A stretch of DNA of 64,000 nt from Styela clava (Eukaryota). A program made the position numbers and the translations under genes. The stretch covers positions 17,608,001 to 17,672,000 of the forward strand of contig NC_135252.1 in the NCBI RefSeq assembly GCF_964204865.1. Reading direction: 5' to 3'. The notes beneath the pieces are model-generated. The model had not been told where the DNA came from. It ran no database searches and was given only the letters and a program-made list of their open reading frames with translations. The first letter of the stretch is position 1, and each line of letters starts with the position of its first letter. Shown one piece after another: positions 1-48,998 of the stretch.

Positions 1-1377
1 TTACTGCATTGAATACAATTTACGGAAGGATGCGACTGTTGAATCGAGGCGGAAATTATTATGCGTTGTCGTCTAATACTTAGAAATAATAACGAAAATG
101 AAAGTTCAATATGGCGTTTCTAAAGTTCTTAGCAAACTGTTTTATAACGATTGAATGCACAATTTTTTTTTGTTGTATATATTTATATGCAAAAAATACA
201 ACTGACTTGTTATTGTTAAAGCCTTTCGGCATTTCATATTCATTGGAATCCATGTTTTCAAATAATCCACTAGTCTTCTTCTTTTTATTGACGAACATAA
301 AATTTCGAATGTTGGCAGTAAAAAGGATCGCCATTCATGTTAAGGGGTGTAAATTGAAAACTTTGACATCGTTCCACTTCGTCTTAAAATGAACAATTAA
401 ATTCCGAGGCGAACTTGGCTAACCCAGACAGTCCCCGAACTCGTAATAGAACTAAAATTAGGAAAATCGTAATAAAATTATGGCCTAATCCTAACCTGGT
501 ACACACACTACGGGTGCCCGTCCCTACCCAAAACATGAAACGTTTTGATTAAAGAAAAATTGCAAACGATTAACGCCGATACCGGTTACCATGTTACTTC
601 CTAAAATAAAACTCGGTGTATAATTATTATCTTAAGCTGTTATTTGCTCGATTTCTCACTTTTACCTTTATTCATTCATGTGCAACTCAATCCAAAAAAC
701 GGTTGGTATTATTTAGGTTTATTCATTATATAATCAACATATATATATATATATAATAAATGTATATAATACAAAATTGGTCATTGATTGCATGATTATA
801 AAACAGTTTTCTTGGGAATCTAGAAACGCCATATTGAATTTCCATTTTCAATTATTTCTCTGAATATAAACTAAACGGCAACCCATATTAATTTCCGCCT
901 TGATTCAAAAGTCGCATCCTTCCGTGAATTGTATTCAATTGTAGTAAGTGTAGTAAGAAATCAACTAAAATTTTATCGATACTATAATTAATATTTCATT
1001 GATCAAACAATTGATTTTTGTTTTTAATTTTTTGACTTGCGTTTTTGAAATATACAAGAATTGCAACAATTACACAAATCGTGAATATTCTTTAAAGTCA
1101 GCGTAAAGTAAGATCAATTCCTAACGAAATGAAAACATTAGGCCAAAACAATTTAAGCTGCTAATCAGCCTCTACATTACGAATCAAATTCATTAGAATA
1201 TTGCGAAACTGATACAGCTGGATTCGAGTCTTAATAATTAGTAAAGTAATTATTATTTATTCATCCGGATATCATCTGTAATTTATTCCAAAAAATTCAC
1301 CTTATGGAACAACATAAGCTTTTTATTGCGTGTTATATTTCAATAAAACATCTGTTTACAGACGGAAAGGTAAAGTG

Positions 1378-1414
1378 TATAAAATGCGCTTGCTTCAAAC
1401 TTTCTATACAGTCG
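1378..1414 (+). promoter_or_regulatory. TATA box and initiator-like site of precursor gene A1 (conserved upstream of all intact A and B copies)
   Basis: TATAAAA at 1378-1384 and an acagtc Inr-like motif about 30 nt downstream, ~60 nt before the ATG. The block is nearly identical near 19047(+), 39344(+), 17239(-) and 37529(-). Confidence 0.55.
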
Positions 1415-1467
1415 AATTTTGTTTCAAATTCAGTCAACTTCCAACAGAGAAGAACAAGGAAGAAAAA

Positions 1468-4437
1468 ATGTCTGGAAAAATTGCAGTACTCGTTCTGGCC
1501 ATGATAATCTGCAGTTTTGGATTGACCAGGTTAGTTTTACCTCATCGCCGCGTTCTGTTTTCATTCAATCTGATACATTTCAATTTTTATATGAACTAAA
1601 CAATACAGGTTTATTCTAGCAATGTACTTTAAATTAGTTTTTGTTGAGAAACTTTTTTCTGGCCACATGAAAAAGTTGAAGATTTTATTTAGGAATAAAA
1701 TGCTAAGATAAACGAGAGTATTTATCCACTATCGAAATTATTTTTAAATTTCGTTAATTCCACTGTTTATTATTGATTCATGTTTGATCTTAATTCAAAT
1801 ACAACTTTGCGTATAAAAAAAGATGCATGTCTTTCTCAATGATTCCAAACGAGCTCAATTATAAATGTTCTAACAATTTCCGGATTGATAAGTTACAGAA
1901 AGCTATAATAAAGTCTACATTTCTTTTCACAGGGCAAAGTCTCTTGAATCTCGTAAGTTCATTTATCTTCTTTATTACGTGAGCATTTCTCAAACATTTG
2001 CCAACACATTTGGTAACTAATTCTGGAATTTGGTCGGTATGACATTTGAACCTGTATTTTCACTAAAACTTTTATTCGAATCGAAAAATTTTAAATGCAG
2101 ACGAACAATTCCAGAATGATATATGATATCTTTCTAAAATCCCAAATGCCGAAAAAAACTCAACAAACCTGTAAATCACATTATTGTATCTCAATCTCCA
2201 TCCGATTTAGTTGTTAGTAAATGCATCACAAATTTCCACTTTCCATTTTATATAATTCAGATTTTATCAACAACAACATACAACAAATAAATAAAATTGT
2301 TTTGAATTTGAAGCTATATCGGGTTTGATATTCTTTGTAATCATTGCAGGTGACCAATCTGAAAAATCCTCGAAAACCTTGGACAACAAAGATCAGAAAA
2401 AAATTTTCTGGTGGATTCCTATCGTGAAAGAAATTGTTCATGCAATAGAGAGAGGCAACGGAAATATTTTATTTTATATGATAAAAACCAAATTTAAAAT
2501 CAATTTCATTCATTTACGATATTTTGTTTGTTTGGGGGACGAGTTGGAAAACACACTAAATTTTTATATTTTATCCCATATGGTTCAGAATATTTCAAAA
2601 ATATCTGAAATTACGAGATTAACGTATTTCATTGAAGATATATAAAATTTAAAATTCTTCGTAATTATTGCAGGTGACCAATCTGAAGAAGTCTCAAAAA
2701 ACTTTGATAACAATGATCAGGAAAAAATTTTCTGGTGGGTTCCTATCGTGAAAGAAATTGTTCAAGCAGTAAAGAGAGGTAAGGAAAACATTTGTTTTAT
2801 TGATGAAAAACCAAATTTTAACTAAAATTGTTTGTTTAAATCAGGGATAAGTTCAGAACACTAAATTTTTATATTTTGTTCCATTTGGTTCCAAATTTTC
2901 AAAAGTTTGAAAAACGAGATGAAAATATTCAATTGAAGCTATATCAAATTATCTGTAATTATTGCAGGTGACCAATCTGAAGATGCTTCGAAAACATTTG
3001 ACAACAAAGATCAGGAAAAATTTGTGTGGTGGATTCCTTTAGTGGAAGAAATTGTTCAAGCAGTAAAGAGAGGTAAGGAAAACATTTGTTTTATTGACAA
3101 AAAAACCAAATTTTAACTAAAATTGTTTGTTTAAATCAGGGATAAGTTCAAAACACTAAATTTTTATATTTTGTTCCATTTGGTTCCAAATTTTCAAAAG
3201 TTTGAAAAAACGAGATGAAAATATTCAATTGAAGCTATATCAAATTATCTGTAATTATTGCAGGTGACCAATCTGAAGATGCTTCAAAAACATTTGACAA
3301 CAAAGATCAGGAAAAAATTTTCTGGTGGGTTCCTATCGTGAAAGAAATTGTTCAAGCAGTAAAGAGAGGTAAGGAAAACATTTGTTTTATTGATAAAAAA
3401 AACAAATTTTAACTAAAATTGTTTGTTTAAATCAGGGATAAGTTCAAAACACTAAATTTTTATATTCTGTTCCATTTGGTTCCAAATTTTCAAAAGTTTG
3501 AAAAAACGAGATGAAAATATTCAATTGAAGCTATATCAAATTATCTGTAATTATTGCAGGTGACCAATCTGAAGATGGTTCAAAAACATTTGACAACAAA
3601 GATCAGGAAAAAATTTTCTGGTGGGTTCCTATCGTGAAAGAAATTGTTCAAGCAGTAAAGAGAGGTAAGGAAAACATTTGTTTTATTGATAAAAAAAACA
3701 AATTTTAACTAAAATTGTTTGTTTAAATCAGGGATAAGTTCAAAACACCAAATTTTTATATTTTGTTCCATTTGGTTCCAAATTTTCAAAAGTTTGAAAA
3801 ACCGAGATGAAAATATTCAATTGAAGCTATATCAAATTATCTTTGATTATTGCAGGTGACCAATCTGAAGATGCTTCGAAAACATTTGACAACAAAGATC
3901 AGGAAAAATTTGTGTGGTGGATTCCTTTAGTAGAAGAAATTGTTCAAGCAGTAAAGAGAGGTAAAGAAAATATTTTCCCAAATGAAAGCAGAAGTTGAAA
4001 CAAAACAATATCATATTATTCATAAATTACATGAGTAACCTATCTGAACATTTTTTGATTCAATGTGAAGCACATGAATGACAAATGACTTTTGAAGTTG
4101 ATAAAATACTAAAATTAAATTGTTCATTTGAAAAGTTTGAAATTTCAAGTATATTTGTCTGGATGTAATTGTTACTGATTATACTTATCCTAAACTACAA
4201 ATACGGTATCCGAATTACTCAGTCTAAAGTAACTTGATTTTTGATACCGTGAAATTCAATTATAACAGTTGAAACTTAATCATAGTAAAGACAAACAAAG
4301 CGGTTGTTTCATTCTGTATTTGTCTCGTCTTTATTTCCTTACTAAATATTTAACATTTTTTGTACAATCGTCAATATAGATGATATTAAACGCAGATGTA
4401 TCATTTGATTTCATTAGTTTTCTCTTTTGCAGGTTAA
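1468..4437 (+). CDS. Secreted multi-peptide precursor A1 (clavanin-like host-defence polyprotein, 6 peptide modules, 238 aa if all exons are used)
   Basis: Exons: 1468-1529 (MSGKIAVLVLAMIICSFGLT, signal peptide), 1933-1952 (RAKSLES), 105-nt modules 2350-2454, 2674-2778, 2968-3072, 3264-3368, 3560-3664 and 3856-3960, and last coding exon 4433-4437 (Gly+TAA). All join in frame with ttgcag acceptors and gtaa(a/g)g donors, except module 1, which has a GC donor. Modules read DQSE...DQ(E/K)K-[IFWWVPIVKEIVQAVKR / FVWWIPLVEEIVQAVKR / IFWWIPIVKEIVHAIER]-G. Confidence 0.85.
2674..3960 (+). repeat. Coding tandem repeat, ~295-bp exon+intron unit (A1)
   Basis: Exon starts at 2674, 2968, 3264, 3560 and 3856 (period 294-296). 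Introns are near-identical apart from an A-run. Confidence 0.95.
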
Positions 4438-6692: not shown

Positions 6693-8434
6693 TTAACCCA
6701 ACAAATAGTCTGACGGAACCAGATCTCCACATCCGAAGGTAGTTAACGTCGCTGCGTCGATTCCTTGTTCAGTTGCAAACGACGTCAACTTGGAAATCTC
6801 CTCGCCAGATAACGAAGGAGTCCGGGTGAAACATTGCAAAATTTTCTGACCTGCAAACACAGTAAGATAACTATTGTAAACGGCATTCCTTCATAATTTC
6901 CGTTCTCTAAATTACAGACGGAAATATTAATACCAGCGGTTTGTGGGTTAGGGCAAAGTCAAACTAATTATCCTGACAGAGTACGCCCGTCCGGAAACCA
7001 ATCGAAGAAATTCTATCTGCAGTGATTGACTAAAACTGTTCACAAAAATTTTTGCAAATGAGAAAGGGAATGTAATCGCTTGGACGAAAAAAAGTATTCG
7101 GTCTATAAGAATAATAACTTAATAAGTATAAGATAATTGTAAGATATTTCTTTCTTGTGGGCCCCGGCGGCGCGTATTTTCGAGGTATTTAATAGCGTAA
7201 AGTCTAATTGGGCAGCTTCAGCTAAAATATTATCATATCATTCGCTAAATTTTCACGTTGATTCTGTTCATTTGGAGTTTCGAGTTTTATACATTGTATA
7301 GGCGGATATTGGATGTTATTGTGCAGTGGCTAAACTTCTTTCCGGACAAGAAGCTACTGATATGCGATCGTACACATATTTATTGTAGTGAATAAATTTT
7401 ATTTCAATGTTTACGATTTTCTTACCATCGCTTGCAGACGACAGCACACAGAGATAGGTCTCGTAGTTTGTATAGAAGCGATGTCGATGAGAATGATACC
7501 ATTGTTTATCTGCGAACAAATAAAAGATCGAATATGTTAAAGAAAATTAGACGTCTTCTAATAACAACGTTATGAAAACCAGAACCTTGGACTTGAGAGG
7601 ATTCAATATTGATGCCTGATCTTCTTTGTGATTGACCATCTAAAAATAATTTTTCAAAAAAGTATTGATGAAATTTATGGTATTGTGGATTGAAAAATTC
7701 ATAATCTTTCTTGTTAATGGGGGCGCAATGGTTTGCAACACTTCGAAATAAAACGATAATTGAATGGGATATTTTGTTCTTGTGTGATGACATCATAACC
7801 ATCTCATTAAAATTGCGGCGAGACTCACCCGTTTGTGAATATATCCAATAATAACCCAAAGAGTCCCGCCTCACATCATCGATGATTGAAACATGAGCAT
7901 CTAATTTGTTCCTTTTAGAAATACGAACTGTTAGCATTCAGTTACTTTTTACACTCTATTGAAGCACAATTTTTAGATAAATAAATCCTTCGCAAATAAG
8001 CTTACTTGGGATATTTGTATAAGTAAACATTCATATCGTTCTCTGTTGTATTGAAAGGTACCATGAGGTGACATCCCCACAAAACATTCCAGTCCCAGGT
8101 ATTTACACCAAGTGTGAGATACCATACTCCGCATAACTAAAAGTAAGAGATTTTAGTACAAATAGCTTTGAGTGTCAGAATTTCAAGCCATAGTGCGTTT
8201 AATTGTGTTGTTTTAATTGCCGAGGTAACATTCGAAATTAAGTCTGGGTTATTCTTACTTGTTATTGATGTTACAAAAACAAACAGAACTTGATTACAAT
8301 TGTAGTTAATACGACAACATAAAATAACAGCTTACACGTTTCAAGTCGATTTCTTTTCCTGAATATATTTTTCGACTCCGCGCGATTGTTAAAAGCACAA
8401 GAATCACGAAAACAGAACCAAATCTACACTTCAT
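6693..8434 (-). CDS. Lipocalin L1, copy 1 (202 aa, secreted)
   Basis: Exons 8434-8336, 8136-8006, 7911-7829, 7639-7586, 7509-7426 and 6850-6693, with intron phases 0,2,1,1,1. It has a signal peptide, IDLKR-LCGVWY (GxW motif), FYTNY (TDY motif), CFTRTP (R motif) and a C-terminal Cys. The exon-4 donor (gttctg) is weak. Confidence 0.8.
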
Positions 8435-11003: not shown

Positions 11004-12570
11004 ATGAAGTGTAGATTTGGTTCTGTTTTCGTGATTCTTGTGCTTTTAACATTCGCGCGGAGTCGAAAGATATATTCAGGAAAAAACATCGACTTGAAAC
11101 GTGTAAGCTGGTATTTTATGTCAACGATGAACTACAATTGTAATCAAATTCCGTTTTTTTATAACATCAACAACAAACAAGATTAACCCAGGCGTAACTT
11201 GTAGAAGAGTATGGTATCTCACACTTGGTGTAAATTACTGGGATTGGAATGATTATGGGGATGTCACCTTGTTGTACCTTTCAATACAACAGAGTACAAT
11301 ATTATTGTGTACTTATACGAATTTCGTACAAAGTGAGCTGTTTTGCGAAGTAACTATTATTGGTGTTAATACAAAATGTAACTGAATGCTAACAGTTCGT
11401 ATTTCTAAAAGGAACAAATTAGATGCTCATGTTTCAAAAATCGATGATGTGAGGCGGGATTCTTTGGGTTATTATCGGATAAATTATCGGATATCGGAGT
11501 TTTACAAGTTTAATGAGATTTCTACGAGACCAAAATATCTCATTTAATTATCGTTTTATTTCGGGATGTTGAAAACCATTGCGCTCTCATTAAAGAGAAA
11601 AATTACAATTCGTTCACGCCATCAATACCATCAATTTCAGCAAAACTTCAAAATATCTTTTTCCTAGATGGTCAATGGGAGAACAACAAATTGTTCAGCA
11701 AACGAAGAGAGTCAGGCATCATTACTAAATCCTCTCAAGTCTAAGATTTTGATATTAAGAATATTGTTCTTGGAAGAAGTCTAGTTTTCTTTAACATATT
11801 CGAGCTTTTGTTTGTTCGCAGATGATCCATGGTTTATTTCTCATCGACATCGCTGTTATACAGGCCTATCTCTGTATGCTGTCGTCTACAAGCGATGGTA
11901 AGAAAATCATAAAACATTGCCTTAAATACATTTATTCGCTTGTTCTTCGCCTCCTTTATGTGTACGATAACACCATGGCACTATAATCTCCAATATTCGC
12001 TTACAAAATATATTCAAAAACTGCAAATGAACAATTTAAATGCGAGCTGTATTGTAAACAGTTATAGCAGAGCAGCACGACAAGAAAAGAAAATGTAGAC
12101 ACTCAAAAGTTTAACATCAAACTCAAGGACCTAGGATCATATTGGTTTACAACGTAACTTAATTGTTTTATTCGTTATCTTATCCATATACACCGATAGT
12201 TTCTTTGTCCCGCGATTGTTTTAACATTTTTATTCCCGAAAATCTTTGTTAGCAATTTCATTCAATCTCTTTAGATTCGGTTTTTCGTCGAATAGATCCC
12301 GATCGATGGCACTCTGAAACATAAACTGCTGGTAGTTGTATTTCCGCTTGAAATTCAAAGCACAAAAATTATAAATAAATATCGTTTATAACAATTCTCT
12401 TACTGTGTTTGCAGATCCGAAACTTCTGCTGCAATGTTTTACCCGGACGCCATCTTTATCTGGTGAAAAGATTTCCGAGTTGACGTTGTTTGCAACCAAT
12501 CAAGGAATCGACCCAGCGACATCAACTACCTGCTGATGTGATGGTGTTAATCTTGACATGCCGTAATGAT
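11004..12570 (+). pseudogene. Lipocalin pseudogene L2, copy 1
   Basis: Exon 1 (11004-11102) is intact and near-identical to L1. The start of exon 2 is deleted (frameshift), the exon-3 and exon-4 donors are lost, exon 5 has a deletion, and exon 6 has TGA at 12534-12536. Confidence 0.85.
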
Positions 12571-15290
12571 GATAAATTCAGAGCGGGCTTAGATCCTTAT
12601 AACACAGAACTTCCGGATATATATGTATAAAAATAATTGTGATTTTATCTAAATTTTATATATTAGTTGAGATTACTCAAATAGTTTCTTCCTAATGCAT
12701 AATCATACAAAAAATTATTTTCAAATAAAATAAGTTCGAACTTAATACTACCGCAGGTATTGGGGGCTTTCTGATTTAAATCCCGACCGTCCCGACCTAT
12801 TTTTTGATTGTTCCTATATCATATAAGTATAAGAAGACATAATATAGGACAGGAAAACAAACCACTGATCCGCGGTTTTTAAAATGCTCTGTTAAGTCAA
12901 GATTTAAAACAGGAAAAATCATTCATAATGCATTCACACAATATTTGATTTACTATTTCGGTATATTATTACGCATCAGCTACTGGCAATAGTTCTGTCA
13001 TCAAGTTTAAGTCATGAAAATACGAATGAGCTGTTGAAAACCCTTCTTGGTCCTACATATTCATGCGAATTCATGTTTTCACATTGAATTTACATTAAAT
13101 CCATCAACATTCTTCTTTTTGCTGATGAATATAAAATAGGTGACGTTTTCAGTAAAAAGGTTTGTCATTTCCGATATAAAATGAATAAAAATCGGTAATG
13201 ATCTTGTGCAATATTATTTTAATCATAACGTTTTTTATTGTGAAAATGGAGGGGGATGTTTAGTGAAGTTGTGCAGGAGCGAAATATCGATTTTTTTTAC
13301 TTCTTCCGACATAACTCAATATCTGAATTTAACGACAATGTTAGCTATTACTGATTTGTTCACAGATAGTCTCATTTTGATACATCGGATATATCAACAC
13401 ATTTCTTTAGAAACACCATGAGTTGTAAAAAATGTTGTAAGATATTGTTCAGGAATACTTTGCTGTTTCTGGGGGTTAGAATTTCATTTTGAAACGAAAT
13501 GGAACGATGTCAAACTTTTTAATTTGTACCCAATATTAGGGATGACGATCTGTCCTACTGCCAACGTTAGACATTTTATGTTCATCATTAAAAGGAAGAA
13601 TACTGGTGGATTTTTGAAAAATCATATTTAAAAACATGGATACCAATGAATATGAAAGGCTTTAACAATAACAACTCGGTAGTATTTCTGCATAAACCTA
13701 TATAATGCAAACGTATGCATTAATTGAAATATTATATCACAGTTTTCTTGGAAATTTAAAAACGCCATATTGAACTTTCATTTTCGTCAATATTTCTGAG
13801 TATAAATTTGACCGCAACCCAAGATAATTTCCGCCTTGATTCAACTGTAGCATCCTTCGGTGAATTGTAATCAATGGTAGTGCATATAATGCAAGGAGTC
13901 TGTAGCAGAAGTGAAGATAAATATCCTAGGATATTCAAGAGACTTGCTGCATACTGCAATTATATCTCAGAAACGTTTCTGACCTTGTGCAGCGGTTCTC
14001 TTGAATCACTTATATACATTTGATATATGGCGGAGTATTGGTAAATGCTGAAAACGGCGACAATGGGAAAACGAGTCGTCGTCATCAAGATGAATCTATC
14101 ATTATTGCAAACTGTGTGATATTCATTACTGAATTTCGAATCAACAGCCTAACTTTGGTTCCCCGCCGCTTCCCTTCATCAATCAAATTATGTTCTTTGC
14201 CTTTTGGCATAAATTTTGCATTTATATCTGTTTATTTGTATGACTGTTTGGGAAAAATAAACTTGACTATGACTACACAAATATATCAAGCCATATTAAG
14301 CAATAATTTTCATTGCCACACCAATTTTGCACCACGACTAATATTAAATATTCACACGAATATGAGAACGGAAAGCAATAAATTGTGCAACATCGACGAT
14401 TTTAGAATATTATTAATGATAATCTTTTAGGCATTGGGTACTATCCTTCTCCGATTTGATTGTTCGAAACTACGCATTCCGTCATTGATATTTTAAGTTT
14501 CTTGATGCATAGCAGGATTCGATTGACCATAATTGTCTATCTATATTACGTCTGGAATTGAAACATCGTTTTCTACGAGTAGTGAGCTAATATACGGATC
14601 AAAATGTATATAGCAAACGATAAGAAATAGTTTCAGTGTGTTTACGTGGCGAAGCAACGATGCGAAATGCACTGCTGGCAAATATCCTTCCAGTATTTCT
14701 ATGTCAGCTTCACGAGGTTTAGTGAATGATGCATGATATTTCAAAGAAAAAATACTCGTTTTTTTTAAAATACAGATAGTTGGTTCTTAATATTTGATCA
14801 GCTGCTCGTTTATAGAGTTGCTTGTTAGGCGGGTAAACAATATTGGTAACTAAGCAAGCTATTCGTGTAATGTTTTCGGATCATAAAATTTGCAGTTTTT
14901 CACAATGAACCCACCAATATAGGATGCGAAAATGTAGCAGATGTTGCAAATGCACAATGAGCCAAACCAAAAACGTTTAAGACTCGCAGATAGATCACTG
15001 ACATAGTGTTGAAATATATACAGCAACATCATAAAGTTTTATCATTTACTTCAGTCTGTATAAACAGTTCACAGAATTGTTCGTATAGTAAGCGGTTTAT
15101 TGTATGTTTATGTCCTAATATCTTTCTTGGAATCCATCGATCAAAATTTTACAAACGTACATGCTTTGATGTAATTTATTCAGAATAATTAGGTTAGATT
15201 TCACACGAGAAAATATGTAAATCAAAATCGGAAGTAGACACGGGTCATCATTGAATCGTCATCTGTATTTTCAAATTTGCTCGATAAGAC

Positions 15291-30395: not shown

Positions 30396-30789
30396 ATGAT
30401 AAATTCTAGGTCCTTATCCTTATAACACAGAACTTCCGGATATATATGTATGAAAATAATTGTGATTTTATCTAAATTTTATATATTAGTTGAGATTACT
30501 CAAATAGTTTCTTCCTAATGCATAATCATACAAAAAATATTTTTTCAAATAAAATATGTTCGAGCTCTGTACTACCGCAGGTATAGGGAGCTTTCTGATT
30601 TAAATCCCGACCGTCCCGACCTATTTTTTGATTGTTCCTATCTCATATAAGAAGACATCATATAAGACAGGAAAACAAACCACTGATCCGCGGTTTTTAA
30701 AATGCTCTGTTAAGTCAAGATTTAAAACAGAAAAAATCATTCATAATGCATTCACACAATATTCAATTTACTATTTCGATATATTATTG

Positions 30790-34960: not shown

Positions 34961-35000
<40 letters not shown>

Positions 35001-37389
35001 CTCTTTTTTTTTTTAAATACAGATAGTTGGTTCTTAATATTTGATCAGCTGCTCGTTTATAGAGTTGCTTGCTAGGCGGATAAATAATATTGGTAACTAA
35101 GCAAGCTATTAGTGTAATTTTTTCGGATCATAAAATTTGCAGTTTTTCACAATGAACCCACCAATATATGATGCGAAAATGTAGCAGATGTTGCAAATGC
35201 ACAATGAGCCAAACCAAAAACGTTTGAGGCTCGCAGATAGATCACTGACATAGTGTTGAAATATATACAGCAACATCATAAAGTTTTATCATTTACTTCA
35301 GTCTGTACAAAACAGTTCACAGAATTGTTCGTATAGTAAGCGGTTTATTTTATGTTTATGTCCTAATATCTTTCTTGGAATCCATCGACCAAAATTTTAC
35401 AAACGTCCATGCTTTGATGTAATTTATTCTGAATAATTAGGTTAGATTTCACACGAGAAAATATGTAAATCAAAATCGGAAGTAGACACGGGTCATCATT
35501 GAATCGTCATCTGTATTTTCAAATTTGCTCGATAAGACTTAACCTGCCGAAGAAAAACTAATGAAGTCAAATAATACTTATGCGCTGAATAATATTTTTT
35601 GAGAAGATTGTAACAAAGATACAAAATATTCCAATACAGAAATAAAGACAACAAGGCGAGTGAAGAATTGCAGAATAAAACATCCGCTTTGTTTGTCTTT
35701 ACTATATTTACGGTATTTTTGAAATTTACTCAATATTAAAATCAAAAATATCAAATATTAAATTACTTTGAACTAGGTTATTTAGATTACGGTATTGATA
35801 ATTTGGGATAAGTATAATCAGTAACAATTACATCCAGGCAAATATAATTAAAATTTCAAATCTTCCGATTGAACAATATCATTCTAGTATTTCATCAACT
35901 TTAAAAGTAATATATCAGTCATCAATAGATCAAAATAATTTTAATGTTAACATTTTACTAAAGTATGTACTTTGTTTTCTGTGAAATATATTAGATTTAA
36001 TTATGATGATGAATTGATCAGTTTAACTGCTCTTACAATTGTACCAGCAACGTTTTTTAACACAGTGTCGGTTCTGTCCTTATCATTTAATCCAATATTT
36101 TTTTTTCAGATAGGTTACTCATGTAACTTATGAATAATATACAATATAGGTAATGCTTTGATTCAACTTCTGCTTTCATTTATTAGACAACATATCCGCC
36201 TAACCTCTCTTTACTGCTCGAACAATTTCCTCCACTATAGGAATCCACCAGAATCTTTCCTGATCTTTGTTGTCAAATGTTTTTGACGCTTCATCAGATT
36301 GATCACCTGCAATAATTACAGAAAATTTTAAATTTTATATGGCTTCAATTCAATACTTTCATCTCGTATTTTCAAATTTCTGAAAATTTCGAATTATATA
36401 AAACAAAATATATCGGATTACACGGATATAACGGATTATTGTCTTTACCTCTCTCTACTGCGTTAACAATTTTTACCACTAAAGGAATCCACCAAAATCT
36501 TTCATGATCTTTGTTATCAACGGTTTTCGAGGATTTCCCAGATTGGTTACCTGCAATAATTACAAAGAATTTCAAATTTGATATAGCTTCAAATTTAAAA
36601 TAGGATTATTTATTTTTCATTTTCGTTTTTTTTTTTTGATAAAATTTAAATCATATAAAATCAATACGTGAAAATTTGTGATGCATTTATCAACAACTGA
36701 ATCGAATGGAGATTTAGATACAATAATGTGATTTACAGAGTTGTTGAGTTTTTTTCGACATTTGGGATTTTAAAAATATATCATATATCATTCTGGAATT
36801 GTTCGTCAGCATTTAAAAATTTTCGATAAAGATTTAGTGAAAATACAGGTTCAAATGTTATACCGACCAAATTCCAGAAATAGTTACCAAATGTGTTGGC
36901 AAATGATTGAGAAATGCTCACGTAATAATTAGATAAATTGAACTTACGAGATTCAAGAGACTTTGCCCTGTAAAATTAAATGTAGACTATATTATAGCTT
37001 TCCGTAACTTATCAATCCGGAAATTGTTAGAACATTTTATAATTGAGCTCGTTTGGAATCATTGAAAAATACATGCATCTTTTTTTATACGCAAAGTTAT
37101 ATTTGAGTTAAGATCAAACATGGATCAATATTAAACAGTGGAATTATTGACGATATTGATAAATAATTTCGAAATTGGATAAATACTCTCGTCTATCTTG
37201 GTATTTTATTCCTGAATGAAATCTTCAACTTTTTCATGTTGCCAGAAAAAAGTTCTCAACAAAAATTAATTTAAAGTACATTGATAGAATTACGTTGTGT
37301 TGTTTAGTTCATATGAAAATTGAAATGTATCAGATTGAATGAATCAGAACAGAACGCGGCGATGAGGTAAAACTAACCTGGTTAATCCA
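31229..37389 (+). repeat. Near-perfect ~3.08-kb tandem duplication
   Basis: 31229-34301 is repeated at 34307-37389 (offset 3078-3088). The copies differ mainly in poly(A)/poly(T) length. Confidence 0.92.
32451..34301 (-). pseudogene. 5'-truncated peptide precursor B2 (exons 2-5 intact, no promoter or ATG)
   Basis: Exons 33879-33860, 33462-33361, 33218-33117 and 32455-32451 match B3. Only the last ~12 nt of exon 1 remain (34290-34301) at the duplication junction. Confidence 0.8.
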
Positions 37390-37439
37390 AAACTGCAGAT
37401 CATCATGGCCAAAACAAATACTGCAATTTTTCCAGACAT
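35539..37439 (-). CDS. Secreted peptide precursor B3 (2 modules, 96 aa)
   Basis: Exons 37439-37378 (MSGKIAVFVLAMMICSFGLT), 36967-36948, 36550-36449 (FWWIPLVVKIVNAVER-G), 36306-36205 (FWWIPIVEEIVRAVKR-G) and 35543-35539. Confidence 0.85.
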
Positions 37440-39433
37440 TTTTCCTTCTTGTTTTTTTCTGTTGGAAGTTGACTGAATTTGAAACAAAATTCGACTGTAT
37501 AGAAAGTTTGAAGCAAGCGCATTTTATACACTTTACCTTTCCGTCTGTAAACAGATGTTTTATTGAAATATAACACGCAATAAAAAGCTTATGTTGTTCC
37601 ATAAGGTGAATTTTTTGGAATAAATTACAGATGATATCCGGATAAATAAATATTAATTACTTTTCTAATTATTAAGAATCGGATCCACCTGTATCAGTTT
37701 CGCAATATTCTATAGTATTTGATTTGTAATGTAGAGGCTGGTTAGAAGCTCAAATTGTTTTGGTCTCATATTTTCTTTTCGTTAGAAATTGTTCTCATTT
37801 TATGTTCTCATTGCTCTCGTGTGATTGTTGCCTTTCTTGTACATTTGAAAAAAAAACGTAAATCAAGGAATTAAATAGGAAACTAGTTTTTTAATTAATG
37901 AAATATCAATTATAGTATCAATGAAATTTTAGTTTACTTCTTACTGCACTTATTACTGCATTGAATACAATTTACGGAAGGATGCGACTGTTGAATCGAG
38001 GCGGAAATTATTATGCGTTGTCGTCTAATACTCAGAAATAATAACGAAAATGAAAGTTCCATATGGCGTTTCTAAAGTTCCAAGCAAACTGTTTTATAAC
38101 GATTGAATGCACAATTTTTTTTTTGTTATATATATTCATATGCAAAAAATACAACTGATTTGTTATTGTTAAAGCCTTTCGGCATTTCATATTCATTGGA
38201 ATCCATATTTTCAAATATGATTTTTTAAATAATCCACTAGTCTTCTTCTTTTTATTGACGAACATAAAATTTCGAATGTTGGCAGTAAAAAGGATCGCCA
38301 TTCATGTTAAGGGGTGTAAATTGAAATCTTTGACATCGTTCCACTTTGTCTTAAAATGAACAATTAAATTCCGAGGCTAACTTGGCTAACCCAGACAGTC
38401 CCCGAACTCGTAATAGAACTAAAATTAGGAAAATCGTAATAAAATTATGGCCTAATCCTAACCTGGTACACACACTACGGGTGCCCCGTCCCTACTCAAA
38501 ACATGAAACATTTTGATTAAAGAAAAATTGCAAACGATTAACACCGATACCGGTTACCATGTTACTTCCTAAAACGAAACTCGGTGTATAATTATTATCT
38601 TAAGCTGTTATTTGCTCGATTTCTCACTTTTACCTTCATTCATTCATCTGCAACTCAATCCAAAAAACGGGTGGTATAATCTAGGTTTATTTATTATATA
38701 ATCAATGTATACATATATAATAAATGTATATAATACAAAATTGGTCATTGATTGAATGATTATAAAACCTTTTTCTTGGAAATCTAGAAACGCCATATTG
38801 AATTTCCATTTTCGATTATTTCTCTGAATATAAACTAAACTAAACTAAACTAATATTAATTTCCGCCTTGATTCAAAAGTCGCATCCTTCTGTGAAATGT
38901 ATCCAATTGTAGTAAGTGTAGTAAGAAATCAACTAAAATTTTATCGATACTATAATTAATATTTCATTGATCAAACAATTGATTTCTGTTTTAATTTTTT
39001 GACTTGCGTTTTTGAAATATACAAGAATTGCAACAATTACACAAATCGTGAATATTCTTTAAAGTCAGCGTAAAGTAAGGACAATTCCTAACGAAACGAA
39101 AACATTAGGCCAAAACAATTTAAGCTGCTAATCAGCCTCTACATTACAAATCAAATTCATTAGAATATTGCGAAACTGATACAGCTGGATCCGAGTCTTA
39201 ATAATTAGAAAAGTAATTAATATTTATTCATCCGGATATCATCTGTAATTTATTCCAAAAAATTCACCTTATGGAACAACATAAGCTTTTTATTGCGTGT
39301 TATATTTCAATAAAACAGCTGTTTACAGGCGGAAAGGTAAAGTGTATAAAATGCGCTTGCTTCAAACTTTCAATACAGTCGAATTTTGTTTCAAATTCAG
39401 TCAACTTCCAACAGAGAAGAACAAGAAGGAAAA

Positions 39434-42400
39434 ATGTCTGGAAAAATTGCAGTACTCGTTCTGGCCATGATAATCTGCAATTTTGGATTAACCAGGTTAG
39501 TTTTACCTCATCGCCGCGTTCTGTTTTCATTCAATCTGATATATTTCAATTTTTATATGAACTAAACAATACAGGTTTATTCTAGCAATGTACTTTAAAT
39601 TAGTTTTTGTTGAGAAACTTTTTTCTGGCAACATGAAAAAGTTGAAGATTTTATTCAGAAATAAAATGCTAAGATAAACGAGAGTATTTATCCACTATCG
39701 AAATTATTTTTAAATTTCGTTAATTCCATTGTTTATTATTGATTCATGTTTGATCCTAATTCAAATACAACTTTGCGTATAAAAAAAGATGCATGTCTTT
39801 CTCAATGATTCCAAACGAGCTCAATTATAAAATGTTCTAACAATTTCCAGATTGATAAGTTACGGAAAGCTATAATATAGTCTACATTTATTTTCACAGG
39901 GCAAAGTCTCTTGAGTCTCGTAAGTTCAATTTATCTTCTTTATTACGTGAGCATTTCTCAAACATTCGCCAACACATTTGGTAACTATTTCTGGAATTTG
40001 GTCGGTTTGCCATTTGAACCTGTATTTTCACTAAAACTTTTATTCGAATCGAAAAATTTAAAATGCTGACGAACAATTCCAGAATGATATATGATATATT
40101 TTTAAAATCCCAAATGACGAAAAAAACTCAGCAACCCTGTAAATCACATTATTGTATCTCAATCTCCATCCCATTCAGTTGTTAGTAAATGCATCACAAA
40201 TTTTCACGTTTTATTTTATATAATTCAGATTTTATCGACAACAACAAAATAAACGAGAACGAAAAAAAATAAAATTGTTTGAATTTGAAGCTATATCGGG
40301 TTTGAAATTCTTTGTAATTATTGCAGGTGACCAATCTGAAAAATCCTCGAAAACCTTGGACAACAAAGATCAGAAAAAAATTTTCTGGTGGATTCCTATC
40401 GTGAAAAAAATTGTTCATGCAATAGAGAGAGGCAAAGGAAATATTTTATTTTATAGGATAAAAACCGAATTTAAAAGCAATTTCATTCATTTACGATATT
40501 TTGTTTGTTCGGGGGACGAGTTGGAAAACACACTGAATTTTTATATTTTATCCCATTTGGTTCGGAATATTTCAAAAATATCTGAAATTACGAGATGAAA
40601 GTATTTCATTGAAGATATATAAAATTTAAAATTCTTTGTAATTATTGCAGGTGACCAATCTGAAGAAGTCTCAAAAAACTTTGATAACAATGATCAGGAA
40701 AAATTTTTCTGGTGGGTTCCTATCGTGAAAGAAATTGTTCAAGCAGTAAAGAGAGGTAAGGAAAACATTTGTTTTATTGATGAAAAACAAAATTTTAACT
40801 AAAATTGTTTGTTTAAATCAGGGATAAGTTCAGAACACTAAATTTTTATATTTTGTTCCATTTGGTTCCAAATTTTCAAAAGTTTGAAAAACGAGATGAA
40901 AATATTCAATTGAAGCTATATCAAATTATCTGTAATTATTGCAGGTGACCAATCTGAAGATGCTTCGGAAACATTTGACAACAAAGATCAGGAAAAATTT
41001 GTGTGGTGGATTCCTTTAGTGGAAGAAATTGTTCAAGCAGTAAAGAGAGGTAAGGAAAACATTTGTTTTATTGATAAAAAAACCAAATTTTAACTAAAAT
41101 TGTTTGTTTAAATCAGGGATAAGTTCAAAACACTACATTTTTATATTTTGTTCCATTTGGTTCCAAATTTTCAAAAGTTTGAAAAAACGAGATGAAAATA
41201 TTCAATTGAAGCTATATCAAATTATCTGTAATTATTGCAGGTGACCAATCTGAAGATGCTTCAAAAACATTTGACAACAAAGATCAGGAAAAAATTTTCT
41301 GGTGGGTTCCTATCGTGAAAGAAATTGTTCAAGCAGTAAAGAGAGGTAAGGAAAACATTTGTTTTATTGATAAAAAAAACAAATTTTAACTAAAATTGTT
41401 TGTTTAAATCAGGGATAAGTTCAAAACACTAAATTTTTATATTTTGTTCCATTTGGTTCCAAATTTTCAAAAGTTTGAAAAAACGAGATGAAAATATTCA
41501 ATTGAAGCTATATCAAATTATCTGTAATTATTGCAGGTGACCAATCTGAAGATGCTTCAAAAACATTTGACAACAAAGATCAGGAAAAAATTTTCTGGTG
41601 GGTTCCTATCGTGAAAGAAATTGTTCAAGCAGTAAAGAGAGGTGAGGAAAACATTTGTTTTATTGATAAAAAAAACAAATTTTAACTAAAATTGTTTGTT
41701 TAAATCAGGGATAAGTTCAAAACACTAAATTTTTATATTTTGTTCCATTTGGTTCCAAATTTTCAAAAGTTTGAAAAACCGAGATGAAAATATTCAATTG
41801 AAGCTATATCAAATTATCTGTTATTATTGCAGGTGACCAATCTGAAGATGCTTCAAAAACATTTGACAACAAAGATCAGGAAAAATTCGTTTGGTGGATT
41901 CCTTTAGTGGAAGAAATTGTTCAAGCAGTAAAGAGAGGTAAGGAAAACATTTGTTTTGTTGATAAAAAAACAAATTTCAACTAAAATTGTTTGTTTAAAT
42001 CAGGGATAAGTTCAAAACACTAAATTTTTATATTTTGTTCCATTTGGTTCCAAATTTTCAAAAGTTTGAAAAACCGAGATGAAAATATTCAATTGAAGCT
42101 ATATCAAATTATCTGTTATTATTGCAGGTGACCAATCTGAAGATGCTTCGAAAACATTTGACAACAAAGATCAGGAAAAATTCGTGTGGTGGATTCCTTT
42201 AGTAGAAGAAATTGTTCAAGCAGTAAAGAGAGGTAAAGAAAATATTTTCCCAAATGAAAGCAGAAGTTGAAACAAAACAATATCATATTATTCATAAATT
42301 ACATGAGTAACCTATCTGAACATTTTTTGATTCAATGTGAAGCACATGAATGACAAATGACTTTTGAAGTTGATAAAATACTAAAATTAAATTGTTCATT

Positions 42401-42709
42401 TGAAAAGTTTGAAATTTCAAGTATATTTGTCTGGATGTAATTGTTACTGATTATACTTATCCTAAACTACAAATACGGTATCCGAATTACTCAGTCTAAA
42501 GTAACTTGATTTTTGATACCGTGAAATTCAATTATAACAGTTGAAACTTAATCATAGTAAAGACAAACAAAGCGGTTGTTTCATTCTGTATTTGTCTCGT
42601 CTTTATTTCCTTACTAAATATTTAATATTTTTTGTACAATCGTCAATATAGATGATATTAAACGCAGATGTATCATTTGAATTCAATAGTTTTCTCATTT
42701 GCAGGTTAA
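39434..42709 (+). CDS. Secreted multi-peptide precursor A3 (7 modules, 273 aa)
   Basis: Exons 39434-39495 and 39900-39919, modules starting at 40327 (IFWWIPIVKKIVHAIER, GC donor), 40651 (FFWWVPIVKEIVQAVKR), 40945, 41241, 41537, 41833 and 42128, and last exon 42705-42709. Confidence 0.85.
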
Positions 42710-44392: not shown

Positions 44393-44832
44393 CCTATCTA
44401 TCTGTTAATATTGTTCTGTTCATATCATCATAACTCATCATAAGCTGAATATGACGACTTCGTCATATTTTGTGCGAAATAAATATGATTTTACAATCAA
44501 TTGCAAAACTATCTTCATTGTGGCAAGCCGGAAGCTTTTACAAATTTGAACCAAGACGTCTCCAATAACTGATTGCTATATTGTATAGATCTTGAAGATC
44601 TTTTATTTCAAACAATGATGAAATCAATTTCAAGAAAAATATTTTTTGTGTGATTATGCATTAAGAAGAAACGGTTTGAAAGTTCCCACCTAATATGTCA
44701 AGAATCAAATTTTTGATAAATCACAACAAATTTTATACTTGTATAATCGGTGTTTTTGTTTCATAAAGATTTAAGACCACTTCTGAATAATTACAACTAA
44801 AACGACATTTCACAAAAATGCTAATACTATTG

Positions 44833-46514
44833 TTAACCCAACAAATAGTCTGACGGAACCAGATCTCCACATCCGAAGGTAGTTAACGTCGCTGCGTCGA
44901 TTCCTTGTTCAGTTGCAAACGACGTCAACTTGGAAATCTCCTCGCCAGATAACGATGGAGTCCGGGTGAAACATTGCAAAATTTTCTGACCTGCAAACAC
45001 AGTAAGACAACTATTGTAAACGGCATTCATTCATAATTTCCGTTCTACGCCCGTCCGGAAACCAATCGAAGAAATTCTATCTGAGGTGATTGACTAAAAC
45101 TGTTCACAAAAATATTTGCAAATGAGAAAGGGAATGCATCGCTGGGACGAAAAAAAGTATTCGGTCTATAAGAATAATATAATTAATAAGTATAAGATAA
45201 TTGTAAGATATTTCTTTCTTGTATGTCCTTGGCGGCGCGTATTTTCGAGATATTAAAAATCTAAATCTAATTGGACAGCTTCGGCTAAAATATTATCATG
45301 TTTCGCTAAATTTTCCCGTTGATTTTGTTCATTTGGAGTTTCGAGTTTTATACATTGTATAGGCGGATATTGGATGTTATTGTGCAGTGGCTAAACTTCT
45401 CTCCGGACAAGAAGCTACTGATATGCCATCGTACACATATTTATTGTAGTGAATAAATTTTAATTCAATGTTTTGCGATTTTCTTACCATCGCTTGCAGA
45501 TGACAACACACAGAGATAGATCTCGTAGTCTGTAAAAAAGCGATGTGGATGAGAACGATACCATTGATAATCTGCGAACAAATAAAAGCTCGAATATGTT
45601 AAAGAATATTAGACGTCTTCTTAGAACAACATTATAAAAACCAGAACCTTGGACTGGAGAGGATTTAGTAAAGATGTCTGATCTTCTTCGTTCGTTGAAC
45701 AATTTGATGTTCTCCCATTGACCATCTAAGAATTAATTTTTTTAAATAGTATTGATTAAATTTATGGTATTGTGGATTGAAAAATTCATAATCTTTCTCG
45801 TTAATGGGCGCCCAATGGTTTGCAACATTTCGAAATAAAAGGAAACGATAACTGAATGGGATATTTTGGCTCATAGCCATCTCATTAAAATTGCGAGACT
45901 CACTCATTTGTGAATTTATCCAATAATAACCCAAAGAATCCCGCCTCACATCATCGATGATTGAAACATGAGCATCTAATTTGTTCCTTTTAGAAAAAAT
46001 AAGAACCGTTATTATTTGCTCGCATTTTACACACGAAAAAAGCACAATTCTTAGATAAATAGTTATTTCGCAAAACATCTCACTTGGGATATTCGTATGA
46101 GTAAACATTCATATCGTTCTCTGTTGTGTTGAAAGGTACCATGAGGTGACATCCCCACAAAACATTCCAGTCCCAGTTATTCACACCAAATGTGAGATAC
46201 CATACTCCGCATAACTAAAAGTAAAAGATTTTAGTACAAATAGCTTTAAGTGTAAGAATTTCAAGCCACAGTGCGTTTAATTGTGTTGTTTTAATTGTCT
46301 AAGTAACATTCAAAACTAAGTCTGAGTTATTCTTCCGTGTTATTGATGTAATGAAAAAACAAACGGAAGTTGACTACCATTATAGTTAATTCACCAATAC
46401 AAAATAACAGCTTACACGTTTCAAGTCGATGTCTTTTCCTGAATATATCTTTCGACTCTGCGCGATTGTTAAAAGCACAAGGATCCCAAAAACTGAACTA
46501 AATCTACACCTCAT
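44833..46514 (-). CDS. Lipocalin L1, copy 3 (210 aa, full-length exon 4)
   Basis: Exons 46514-46416, 46214-46084, 45986-45904, 45725-45648, 45571-45488 and 44990-44833 join in frame. Motifs LCGVWY, FFTDY and CFTRTP are present. Confidence 0.82.
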
Positions 46515-48998
46515 CGTTTTGCCAGCGTCAAACTTCCAGTGAAGGATAATCTTGACGAACAATAAGCTATATTATGCATGCGCTGCATGGAATCAATAGA
46601 AAAATCAAGAATCAATAGAGGTTAAATTCATAATTCGTGTCCCAATGAGGTTTACGCTTTATACTGCATAATTCGTGTCCCACTGCTGTTTACCTTTTAC
46701 TGAGCATATTCATACTTATTTCAATGAATACATACTCTTGCTGGTATCTTAGGGCCTCCCGCAGTAATATATGTTTTAGGGGTGCAATAATGAAAATGGT
46801 ATGGATTGCATTGCATGCTACGTGTATAGAAACTGTTTCATATAAATTAGATTGGAAAAAATGGATTGGTCAATACCTAACACACATGGCGTTATCTATG
46901 CCCAAAAAGACGTTACTAAAATTAATCACTTGCTTAGTCGCCAATTCCATCGTACAATCCGCCAAGGAAGGGACTCTATAAGCAAGAAGCTAATCAAATA
47001 TTAATAGCAAACCATCTGTATATCAGAAATACCGAGTATTTATCTTTTGGAATGTTCTGCATAATCCATAGTGAACCTCGTGAAGCTGACAAAGAAATAT
47101 ATATACCGTTTTACCATTTTTGTTGCAATACTAGAAGTATATTCGCCCGCAGTGCGAAATTCGCGTCCGCCTCCTATACCTGGCAAGCTTATTGAAACAG
47201 CATGGCTCCATAGAAAATTGATAGAAGTCATATTAACTTGGGAAATTTATCCTCGATACACACTCAAAGAGTTTGATAGAGACCGATGGCAATGCTAATG
47301 CTCTCAATAGTGTTTAGTAGACACATGACGTTCATATTGCACGTGCAGATCTATGAGTAAGAGAACACAATTCCATAAAAAATAAGTTTATAATTTTTTC
47401 CAGGGTAAGATAGGATTTCCATCATAAGAGAATTGAAAGTATGAAATGATCGAGTCCATCTGGCACTCTAGCTAGAGACAAGGGATATACAGAGCTGCTC
47501 GGGCATCAGTTATTTAAGGGCACTTATCTGGATACTTTAATCAAAATCATATTTCCAAATACCGAATAAGCAAAGCTTCTGAAAAAACATTTAACTATTA
47601 CAAGTGAGCTGCATTCTGTTAATGTTACTAAAAATACCTAAGTCGGCTTTTCTCTTTACCTACTGAACCAATTGCTTTGAAATTTTCAGTGGTTGAAGAT
47701 TGTATTTCTTGCTAGAAGGATATCACATGCATTTCACAAAAAATTTTGTTGGCTCTATTTGTTTTTGTGTGTGATGATGTCATCAATATTGTGCATCTTG
47801 TGGCGTTTACGTTTGCGTTAGTCATGAAGTTTGCGGTACGTTTTGGCTTCGTGTTCACATATTTGAGCATCGATCTCTTGTTTAGGTTTATCCCTAAAAT
47901 TAAGTAACGGTTGCCTTTCACATTTCTCAATTACCTTGTAAATGCTCCAATAAATATTAAACTTGTATAATTTTTTCTGTCTCAATCTCTTCGGTAAAAC
48001 AATACAAGTTAGCTTGCAGAATTATATGCATTTGATTACCATAGGATTATTCTGTCAATTTGCTCTCCATGTGTACACAGCAGCTAGCGCCACGAGAAAT
48101 ATGTAAAAGAAAAATTCATATACCGACGAATTAATCTAATAAAGAATATTAATTTCTGGCCTTGAGACCAATCCAATAACATTGAATGGGTTTTGATCCA
48201 TAAATCAAATGATGTCATTTCTAATTGGTGACAATCTGGTGTTTACCAAATCAGATTTGGTCATGTTTATATAATATGTGCATAATGTATAATCTCGTTT
48301 CAGCGGTATGGCTGAATTTATCAATCCTGTCGGATCCTTTTTGATTGTTCAAAAAGATTTGTTTTGGAACAATTATTTAAATCAAGTTTTTTACCTGCTT
48401 TGTTCAAAATAGATGTATTATTTGTATCTTTTATATTAATATAGGCTAAAACAAGACGTAAATACTTGCCTAATCGATTCTTATTGTCAAAGTCGATATG
48501 CCCTTCGACACACCGCAAGTATCGATGACTTGCCCGTAAACGCCTGCTTAAGCTTAAGCGCAATGTTCGTGTAAAACCACCCCACCACGTGTTAGAGGCA
48601 TTCCTATTTTTCAGTATAATTGATGCTAAAATTTGATTTACCTAGAAGACTAGTTATGAAGTATATTAATTTGTTTAAAAAGATATTATTTTAAAACAAA
48701 TGCTTTACCTATTTCGCTGTTGTTTTTTATTCTCTTTTATTTAATAGGTTAAAGAGGTAAATATAAAAGCTTGCGTAAGCGATTCTAAAACTCGATCGAA
48801 ACATGTATTGAAGACTAACGTATTGCTCATGCCCTCTCAAGCTGTAGCACAATGCGTTCGCAAACGTATTTGGCGGTGAAGGAAAACGAAAACCGACAAG
48901 CCTCTATGTGAACCACCCTACAAAGACGAGGAGTCCAGTAATTTGCTTGCACAGTGCCCAGTTCCTCTTGAGATTCTAAAGTACGTGGGTACTATAGT

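Follow-up and report, generated by a model that had tools for sequence, protein, structure and literature searches.

The window, i.e. the whole stretch of 64,000 nucleotides of Styela clava that was analysed (contig NC_135252.1, positions 17,608,001 to 17,672,000), contains two types of peptide genes (A and B) and two types of lipocalin genes (L1 and L2), arranged in three direct copies of a unit with the order L2 B | A L1. The units are 17.7-19.6 kb long and mostly 2-6% apart. Gene order and strands given in the first-pass annotation agree with the repeat comparison of the window. Its array, however, started inside the window, whereas the first unit begins 9.9 kb upstream and contributes a further L2(+) at -7051 and a further B(-) at -511 (window coordinates), so that the array reads [L2 B A L1] × 3. 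The annotated pair of adjacent B genes indeed comprises two B stretches; the first of these is, however, a 3.07-kb partial duplicate without a start codon and with nearly no signal exon. All features are listed in Table 1.

Table 1. Features of the array and its flanks in window coordinates (negative values lie upstream of the window).
Feature	Position	Strand	Remarks
Unpaired spacer, unit 0 inversion centre, B0-A1	187..755		arms -1400..186 and 756..2358 inverted, 86%
B0 start codon	511 bases before window	-	left neighbour of unit 0 spacer
Peptide gene A1	1468..4437	+	238 aa; signal exon 1468-1529, 20-nt micro-exon 1933-1952, stop exon from 4433
A1 repeat exons	2350-3960	+	six, 105 nt each, period 296 bp; GC donor on first
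Lipocalin L1a	6693..8434	-	six exons, 202 aa, open; in-frame 8-residue deletion in exon 4; identical to P0003
Tandem junction unit 0/unit 1	9687		homology with array's left edge begins
Lipocalin pseudogene L2b	11004..12591	+	exon-2 acceptor and exon-4 donor gone; 8-nt loss in exon 5; exon-6 stop
Peptide gene B1	15291..17149	-	96 aa; signal exon, micro-exon 16666-16685, two 102-nt repeat exons, stop exon
Unpaired spacer, unit 1 inversion centre	17849..18425		arms inverted, 86%
Peptide gene A2	19137..22817	+	308 aa, eight repeat exons
Lipocalin L1b	24373..26117	-	202 aa, open; exon-4 deletion as in L1a; matches P0012
Tandem junction unit 1/unit 2	27368		first-pass 27.4-kb centre
Lipocalin pseudogene L2c	28798..30417	+	stop at exon-2 start; exon-4 donor gone; 8-nt loss in exon 5; exon-6 stop
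B2 duplicate block	31229..34301	-	3.07 kb, very recent; 5'-truncated B, no ATG, only last bases of signal exon
Peptide gene B3	35539..37439	-	96 aa, two repeat exons
Unpaired spacer, unit 2 inversion centre	38140..38719		arms inverted, 87%
Peptide gene A3	39434..42709	+	273 aa, seven repeat exons
Lipocalin L1c	44833..46514	-	210 aa, open, exon-4 deletion absent; matches P0015
Three more lipocalin paralogs, outside units	~51036-52941, 55764-60367, 61460-64120	+	exon matches

As read from the sequence, each intact peptide gene consists of a signal exon, whose encoded N-terminus was judged hydrophobic by eye, a 20-nt micro-exon encoding AKSLE, and two to eight symmetric phase-1 repeat exons. Each repeat exon encodes a mostly acidic spacer, an amphipathic peptide of 16-17 residues and a terminal glycine; Gly-Asp or Gly-stop is found after every repeat. 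The six intact precursor genes thus specify 28 peptide copies with about ten distinct sequences. For B, the joints 15293-15921 and 16262-16662 are spliced in contigs of run X5. The hydrophobic moments are 0.69-0.93, and for six of the nine peptides tested 0.15-2.7% of the shuffles reach the value of the peptide. The side-chain charge is 0 to +2 (0 in nine of the 29 exons counted), to which a free N-terminus together with an amidated end would add one. Given this low charge, some peptides may be weak antimicrobials or serve another role. They carry at most one histidine, start with Trp-Trp/Pro and may resemble halocyntin. An antimicrobial or membrane-active role is predicted, the cleavage sites being placed by analogy. 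For the A and B precursors, the collections searched hold no protein record; single repeat exons matched no Pfam family, a feature search of the Atlas with one paralog gave no usable match, and a word search with one peptide exon, which is weak evidence, gave no candidate.

The exons of L1 have lengths of 99, 131, 83, 54 or 78, 84, and 158 nt, and the intron phases (0,2,1,1,1) follow the pattern of the lipocalin family. Crustacyanin and beta-lactoglobulin contain aligned counterparts (E=0.0015) of its GxW, T-[DN]-Y, and R-T-P motifs, and the Atlas similarity to lipocalin clusters is 0.92 (185/256 features). The score against the Pfam lipocalin family is 19.7 bits (E 0.001), the cut-off being 23. 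A low-confidence model based on an alignment of six sequences (pLDDT 42.5) consists of strands followed by a helix; Foldseek found no match to it at E<=0.001. L1 resembles the lipocalins (PF00061/PF08212; crustacyanin A2, PDB 1gka) in motifs, Atlas features and its six exons; it differs from those known in staying below the Pfam cut-off, in lacking eight residues in two copies, and in belonging to a divergent, lineage-specific expansion. The 23 last-exon matches in the genome comprise six in the units, four flanking them, 12 at C3:12.9-13.4 Mb in direct repeats of their own (85-98% alike), and one on C9. For Ciona, a single lipocalin is reported (PMC8420045).

That every A gene keeps an intact L1 holds in all three units as far as open reading frames are concerned, with L1a and L1b lacking the eight exon-4 residues of L1c, which also differs from them by 12% in the 5' part. 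L1 is spliced as well: four joints were found for L1a in X5, a spliced contig in X10, and one joint of L1c in X6. The dN/dS comparison proposed at first pass gave 0.13, 0.46, and 0.69 (p = 0.0009, 0.016, and 0.32), which indicates some purifying selection, but not for all pairs. L1 probably functions as a lipocalin and is constrained in its own right, not as a dedicated partner of the peptides. In contrast, all three L2 copies are pseudogenes, and because their lesions are common to all of them, L2 was dead before the amplification.

The view that the L2-B half is a diverged mirror image of the A-L1 half was borne out: positions 4074-5257 and 15674-14482 are 77.8% identical over 1,241 columns, far above chance. 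Among the four symmetry centres proposed, those at 18.1 and 38.4 kb are inversion centres, whereas those at 9.7 and 27.4 kb were dropped, as they are tandem junctions (~9687 and ~27368); a centre at 0.5 kb had been missed. The three real centres fall between head-to-head peptide genes. A and B constitute the arms, which are 9-21% apart and less divergent near the centre. Compared with the 2-6% between most units, this supports the proposal of an older inverted duplication and a later tandem amplification of the palindrome. The inverted block, however, was larger than the peptide/lipocalin pair originally envisaged. Mirror symmetry extends to the outer lipocalin genes: the paralogs at 51036-64120 correspond to a lipocalin at -10642..-14697, with inverted matches of 80-84%. 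Two further outer mirror matches (50165-50835 and 49630-50050) lie in high-copy repeats and were excluded from the arm homology. Such an alternating array is what inversion and subsequent tandem copying ordinarily yield.

An assembly origin of part of the array, with allelic haplotypes or false duplicates lined up as tandem units, is unlikely. The divergence of the units, mostly 2-6%, is admittedly near that between run X1 and the unique flank (55 differences in ~2,460 bases) and as small as the 1-3% found in this flank for a sample other than the assembled one, and B2 and B3 are 99.9% identical (three mismatches and 10 gap bases between the B2 block and 34307-37389). However, there are more units than two haplotypes would supply, the 184 kb contain no N, the same junction occurs twice with 98% identity, and the units differ in insertions and exon number. 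The 770 bases before 9687 have only two occurrences in the genome. The joint of B2 carries five added bases, and an earlier NCBI annotation already lists six L1-type loci with forms of 202 and 210 aa, one of them without counterpart here. Half read depth, suggested at first pass as the sign of haplotypes, was not seen: X1 reaches 30-35 in four three-copy bins compared with ~15 on four long unique contigs, although values of 25-27 also occur in two bins of unique sequence, and depth summed over contigs does not measure copy number. The raw reads of X23, with less than ~2-fold depth outside transposons, are too thin for copy number; run X9, being sparse, was left out of account.

The closest links of the peptide genes lie within the same species. 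Among 1.84 billion representatives, the only real matches were P0008, P0011, and P0009 (S. clava LOC120342297, LOC120336745, uncharacterised); P0010 from Mytilus was set aside as an acidic low-complexity match. In the genome, 44 peptide-exon matches were found, none of them at C3:12.9-13.4 Mb. At C3:10.64 Mb, a second head-to-head peptide pair lies without a lipocalin; in the tree, its two members are sisters (support 0.995), and A groups with B (1.0). The paralogs LOC120342297 and LOC120336745, located by sequence at C3:10.64 and C2:12.04 Mb, share the leader and the spacer-peptide-Gly repeats with the array genes, but contain other peptides and have no lipocalin neighbour.

The leader leads to the clavanins. 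Array and clavanin/clavaspirin (PF05452) genes have in common a phase-2 signal exon (62 nt in the former versus 47 nt in the latter), the 20-nt micro-exon (phases 2/1, residues AKSLE), and a phase-1 exon with an acidic pro-piece ending in one basic residue; the peptides start hydrophobic and end in Gly followed by Asp. A micro-exon pattern gave 15 genome-wide matches and none in the control; note that it was composed after viewing both gene types, so that matches on both are by construction. Clavanin is the top Pfam family for P0008 (E 0.03, 15 bits) and P0011 (E 0.0067, 17.1 bits), in residues 8-37 of the prepro part only and below the 21-bit cut-off. The array exons do not match PF05452, the array is absent from the six genome matches of this family, and the mature region cannot be aligned to clavanin (E=0.42). 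With Pfam scores below cut-off, 16-17 instead of 23 residues, at most one histidine and two to eight peptides per precursor, true clavanins were dropped as an identification; clavanin precursors contain one His-rich peptide, whereas the array encodes one per exon, and the two groups lie on different chromosomes. According to two reports, clavanins are amidated and cut before DD (PMC7387483, PMC4881601); a third concerns a tagged clavanin variant and not the array peptides (PMC13604612). That S. clava possesses an undescribed defence family of multi-peptide polyproteins with a clavanin leader appears reasonably probable.

The A and B transcripts look abundant. In X5, the B joints have depths of 6,456 and 6,912 and the L1 joints of 60; in X6, the last-exon bin of A reaches 5,218 and the L1c joint 43; in X10, a spliced L1 contig lies at 15 and the peptide bins at 0. 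For all of these runs, contig depth is a poor measure of expression and cannot show absence. They and X11 are presumed to be RNA on GT-AG joints alone and were read as contigs. The joints listed (15 out of 68, and 15 out of 181) include no spliced L2, which proves nothing.

The first-pass annotation had left two explanations for L1, functional coupling and hitch-hiking, and the latter is favoured, because L2 was amplified dead, B thrives beside it, other loci are unlinked, and the depth of L1 in the RNA-like runs stays far below that of the peptides. The amplification took dead genes along, as L2 is inactive in all three units with common lesions, and an alternating array formed by inversion and tandem copying needs no peptide-lipocalin partnership. 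The lipocalins are thus likely passengers carried as neighbours in the repeat. That each unit has kept one L1 because it serves as carrier, chaperone or self-protection for the hydrophobic peptides is very unlikely, although L1 is open in three of three units, dN/dS was counted below 1 for two of the three pairs, both proteins are of secreted type, and both are spliced in X5 and in X6. L1a and L1b are only 0.9% apart, so that the three open copies amount to about two independent retentions, and B adjoins a dead L2 in every unit, i.e. an intact partner does not accompany every peptide gene. Stretches of 60, 30, 20, and 20 kb around four other peptide loci contain no lipocalin at E<0.05 (one match at E=0.62), and the 12 relatives at C3:12.9-13.4 Mb lack peptide genes. 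Moreover, L1 joints are ~100-fold shallower than those of B in X5, even though each peptide transcript yields two to eight peptides, and X10 shows an L1 contig without peptide contigs. Finally, the spacers would already provide a neutralising pro-piece of the usual kind (PMC10608444).

We consider it probable, with good confidence, that the locus reflects amplification at three levels (exon, inverted pair, and 18-19-kb tandem unit) of a secreted multi-peptide precursor with a clavanin leader, whose predicted products are amidated, amphipathic defence peptides; the lipocalins were likely taken along as neighbours. In the history proposed, an inverted duplication would have copied a peptide gene bordering a lipocalin cluster, together with 15 kb or more of the DNA downstream of it, whereupon the left lipocalin copy (L2) would have died. 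The middle of the palindrome would then have been tandem-copied by unequal exchange and partly homogenised, leaving the edges more divergent; slippage among the 296-bp exon repeats may have produced A genes with six, eight, and seven peptides, and the duplication of most of one B would be the last small event. The precursor would be secreted and cut after the final basic residue of the spacer and before the next Asp, with Gly giving rise to amidation as in clavanins. The mature peptide, e.g. IFWWVPIVKEIVQAVKR, would bind membranes as a short helix, and extra exons and genes would raise the peptide dose.

The same architecture with peptides that are not antimicrobial, but signalling, tunic-structural, anti-fouling or active uncleaved, is quite improbable: the low charge, the missing His enrichment, the unrelated mature region (E=0.42) and the lack of family matches for single exons and of Atlas matches would suit it, whereas the clavanin-type leader, the Gly-Asp boundary and the amphipathic helices argue against it, as do the tandem peptide exons described for frog defence-peptide genes (PMC3731216). 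Hardly probable is the wider reading in which this undescribed family is a second, multi-peptide branch of the clavanin superfamily, has formed head-to-head palindromes repeatedly (twice on the chromosome) and, at its largest locus, has recruited a neighbouring lipocalin that protects or delivers the peptides at low abundance, each unit retaining one copy after the loss of its superfluous mirror counterpart.

If processing occurs as predicted, a peptide family was overlooked in S. clava, a species studied for antibiotics since the 1990s, and the clavanin leader is a reusable export cassette for unrelated peptides. Frog skin peptides likewise combine a reusable export leader with unrelated peptides. 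The cargo matters most, i.e. the 28 peptide copies without a record in the collections mentioned, and the micro-exon offers a simple probe for similar genes in other ascidians.

The array resembles the magainin and caerulein genes of Xenopus laevis, whose near-identical tandem peptide exons are proposed to raise output, while pipid clusters contain genes in both orientations and pseudogenes (PMC3731216). It differs from the Xenopus laevis genes in lacking homology, in the nested amplification of exon, palindrome and tandem unit, and in the passenger lipocalins. In birth-and-death tandem arrays and gene palindromes, expansion by unequal exchange, divergent edges, pseudogenes copied along, and lower arm divergence near the centre are familiar. 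Compared with these, only the combination is different: here, a palindromic unit was copied in tandem, so that the orientation of the genes alternates.

Self-comparison bore out the alternating gene order proposed by the first-pass annotation, and matched 4074-5257 as a mirror image to 15674-14482 (77.8%). Once the upstream DNA is included, the array consists of three direct copies (units 0, 1 and 2) of L2(+) B(-) A(+) L1(-), where A and B are head-to-head peptide genes and L1 and L2 the neighbouring lipocalin genes. At each inversion centre, an unpaired spacer of 570-580 bases separates the head-to-head peptide genes; the two centres that had been placed at 9.7 and 27.4 kb are actually tandem junctions, which look symmetrical because a palindromic unit was repeated. 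About 770 bases directly 5' of these junctions occur twice in the genome (98% identity), and no third copy was found there, even upstream of L1c. B2, a 5'-truncated duplicate of B, lies in a copied stretch of 3.07 kb that shows 3 mismatches and 10 gap bases; B2 has no start codon. Two unrelated inverted duplications nearby suggest that inversions are common in this region.

Features of the array, its surroundings and related loci (numbering of the window, which is G000:C3:17608001-17672000, negative values upstream; C1-C10, contigs of source genome G000; L009-L040, other genome stretches)
Feature	Position	Strand	Remark
L2a	-7051	+	completes first unit, upstream of window
B0	-511	-	completes first unit, upstream of window
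Unit starts	about -9931, 9687, 27368		homology of last unit ends near 46,670
Pre-junction sequence	8930-9686, 26613-27367
First repeat exon, A1 and A3	2350-2454, 40327-40431		GC donor
Exon 4, L1a and L1b	7586-7639, 25268-25321		24-nt in-frame deletion
Inverted duplication	-36897..-24963		89-90%
Inverted duplication	87512..95828		84-96%, with 372-bp repeats
LTR-retrotransposon frame	L009:2206-5844	-	2-6 kb past window end; open, 1,213 aa (protease, RT, RNase H, integrase)
Second peptide-gene pair	G000:C3:10634779-10642798 (L027-L028)		head-to-head, inverted
Peptide paralogs	G000:C2:12.02-12.05 Mb (L015-L017)		about four, mixed orientation
Lipocalin clusters	G000:C3:12.92-13.38 Mb (L032-L038, L040)		larger; direct tandem repeats, similarity up to 98%
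Two intronless 217-aa frames	G000:C5:19727642, C4:7817826		weak match to most of L1 (25-27%, E 0.003-0.004)
Further clavanin-type micro-exons	G000:C1:22047393, C10:21157591, C3:16861313

Both the architecture and the relative ages of the array are established. A and B differ by 9.3-10.8% in the 5' block and by 19.4-21.4% around the last exon, L1 and L2 by 16.6-18.7%; within classes, divergence is 1.4-3.6% for A, 1.9-2.6% for B and 4.0-6.1% for L2. L1a and L1b are 0.9% apart, L1c is 12% from each in its 5' part, and units 0 and 1 differ at 609 of 16,395 sites. The lower arm divergence near the centre could reflect arm-to-arm conversion or constraint. Outside the units, a lipocalin at -10642..-14697 mirrors three lipocalins at 51-64 kb in collinear pieces (80-84%); each arm of the old inversion was thus likely 15 kb long or more. 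The tandem units may have arisen by unequal exchange, possibly with selection on peptide dose.

The main interest of the locus is its unannotated peptide family, not the palindrome. Six peptide genes are intact (A1-3, B0, B1, B3; 96-308 aa), each with a 62-nt signal exon, a 20-nt micro-exon, repeat exons of 102 or 105 nt and a stop exon. There are 30 repeat exons: 6, 8 and 7 in A1-3, 3, 2 and 2 in B0, B1 and B3, and two more in B2. Each encodes a 17-residue spacer, a 16-17-residue peptide and Gly; of 29 exons counted, the pattern having failed to pick up one in B0, 23 have an acidic spacer. The nine distinct peptides counted have charges of 0 to +2 and hydrophobic moments of 0.69-0.93. The precursors would be cleaved and amidated at Gly, and the released peptides may be antimicrobial. 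The GC-donor first repeat exon of A1 and A3, which A2 lacks, may be skipped in splicing. A 13-exon profile compared with 1.84 billion proteins gave three matches, namely two paralogs from S. clava and a low-complexity, acidic protein, and no record of the A and B precursors; open-access literature yielded no description of these peptides or the locus, where supplements could list such peptides.

Genome-wide, the peptide exon has 44 matches, 30 in the array and 14 at four other loci. The second inverted pair consists of sister genes whose arms match at 68-85% around a spacer of about 270 bases, and one of their exons contains two spacer-peptide units; no lipocalin was found there, so peptide genes invert without lipocalins. 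The paralogs on C2 encode different peptides, have exon repeats of 190 and 447 bp and contain many exons that are broken; they look like birth-and-death in progress.

L1 has six exons and is identical to the NCBI record P0003 (Styela clava LOC120342881), which is not independent support. It aligns to lipocalin motifs (crustacyanin, E=0.0015), with a Pfam score under the cut-off and 0.92 in the protein-feature resource Atlas; its predicted structure gave no reliable fold. The proposal that every A keeps an intact L1 holds insofar as L1a, L1b and L1c are all open, but L1a and L1b lack eight residues of exon 4 through a common deletion, also present in the 202-aa proteins of the earlier annotation. 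The dN/dS values of L1 (0.13, 0.46 and 0.69; the first rests on 4 and 8 changes, 8 of these 12 in exon 6) suggest some constraint. B and L1 are spliced. L2 is dead: its three copies have all lost the exon-4 donor, are frameshifted by a loss in exon 5 and contain a stop in exon 6, which places the death of L2 before the tandem copying; at exon 2 the copies also carry a stop or a lost acceptor. Among 23 last-exon matches of the L1 family in the genome, 12 form direct repeats of their own at a distance of 4-5 Mb. The array locus and the C3 clusters form a lineage-specific lipocalin expansion of 20 or more genes, whereas a review gives Ciona one lipocalin (PMC8420045).

Four sequencing runs from three studies, RNA by guess and available as contigs in which copies are indistinguishable, differ in coverage. 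X5 has depths of 6,456 and 6,912 at B joints, 4,342 in an A last-exon bin and 60 at four L1 joints; X6 has 5,218 at the A last exon and 43 at an L1c joint. X10 contains one spliced L1 contig (depth 15) and empty peptide bins, X11 neither L1 nor peptide coverage. Between the two options offered for L1, functional coupling and hitch-hiking, the latter is the better reading because dead L2 was copied three times and L1 lies 100-fold below the peptide genes in depth. In addition, the stretches examined at the four other peptide loci contain no lipocalin match, and none of the peptide exon's genome matches falls in the distant lipocalin clusters. Only the open, constrained state of L1 and its occurrence in the same runs as the peptides speak for coupling.

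That the units are an assembly artefact is improbable, given three units, no N within 184 kb, a junction-side sequence found exactly twice, and six L1-type loci at NCBI from an earlier annotation with 202- and 210-residue forms, although these loci (one is not encoded in the window) could include uncollapsed haplotypes. Run X1, with DNA-like intron coverage and 55 differences in about 2,460 bases from unique flank, has a depth of 30-35 in four three-copy bins versus 14.4-15.5 on four long unique contigs and 8 to 27 in other unique bins, summed contig depth being, as the tool warns, no copy number.

The array's peptide genes share their micro-exon with the clavanin genes of the source genome, whose second exon agrees in length (20 nt), phases and AKSLE. 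A micro-exon pattern, composed after both gene types had been seen, occurs at 15 places genome-wide (control 0), ten in the array's peptide family and five of clavanin type. Besides two full clavanin genes on C1, the latter five comprise three further micro-exons, two with a clavanin signal exon and none with a third exon by pattern search. Independently of this pattern, two annotated paralogs have Clavanin as their best-ranked Pfam family, in the leader only and with scores below the cut-off. We rejected the array peptides as clavanins: the clavanin leader is present, but the paralogs' Pfam match stays below the cut-off and the mature regions do not align. Clavanins are reportedly amidated and cleaved before DD (PMC7387483, PMC4881601), which fits the Gly-Asp boundary in the array peptides. 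The array works in the manner of the Xenopus laevis genes for magainin and caerulein, which have tandem peptide exons (PMC3731216); in the array, in contrast, such exons sit on a clavanin leader.
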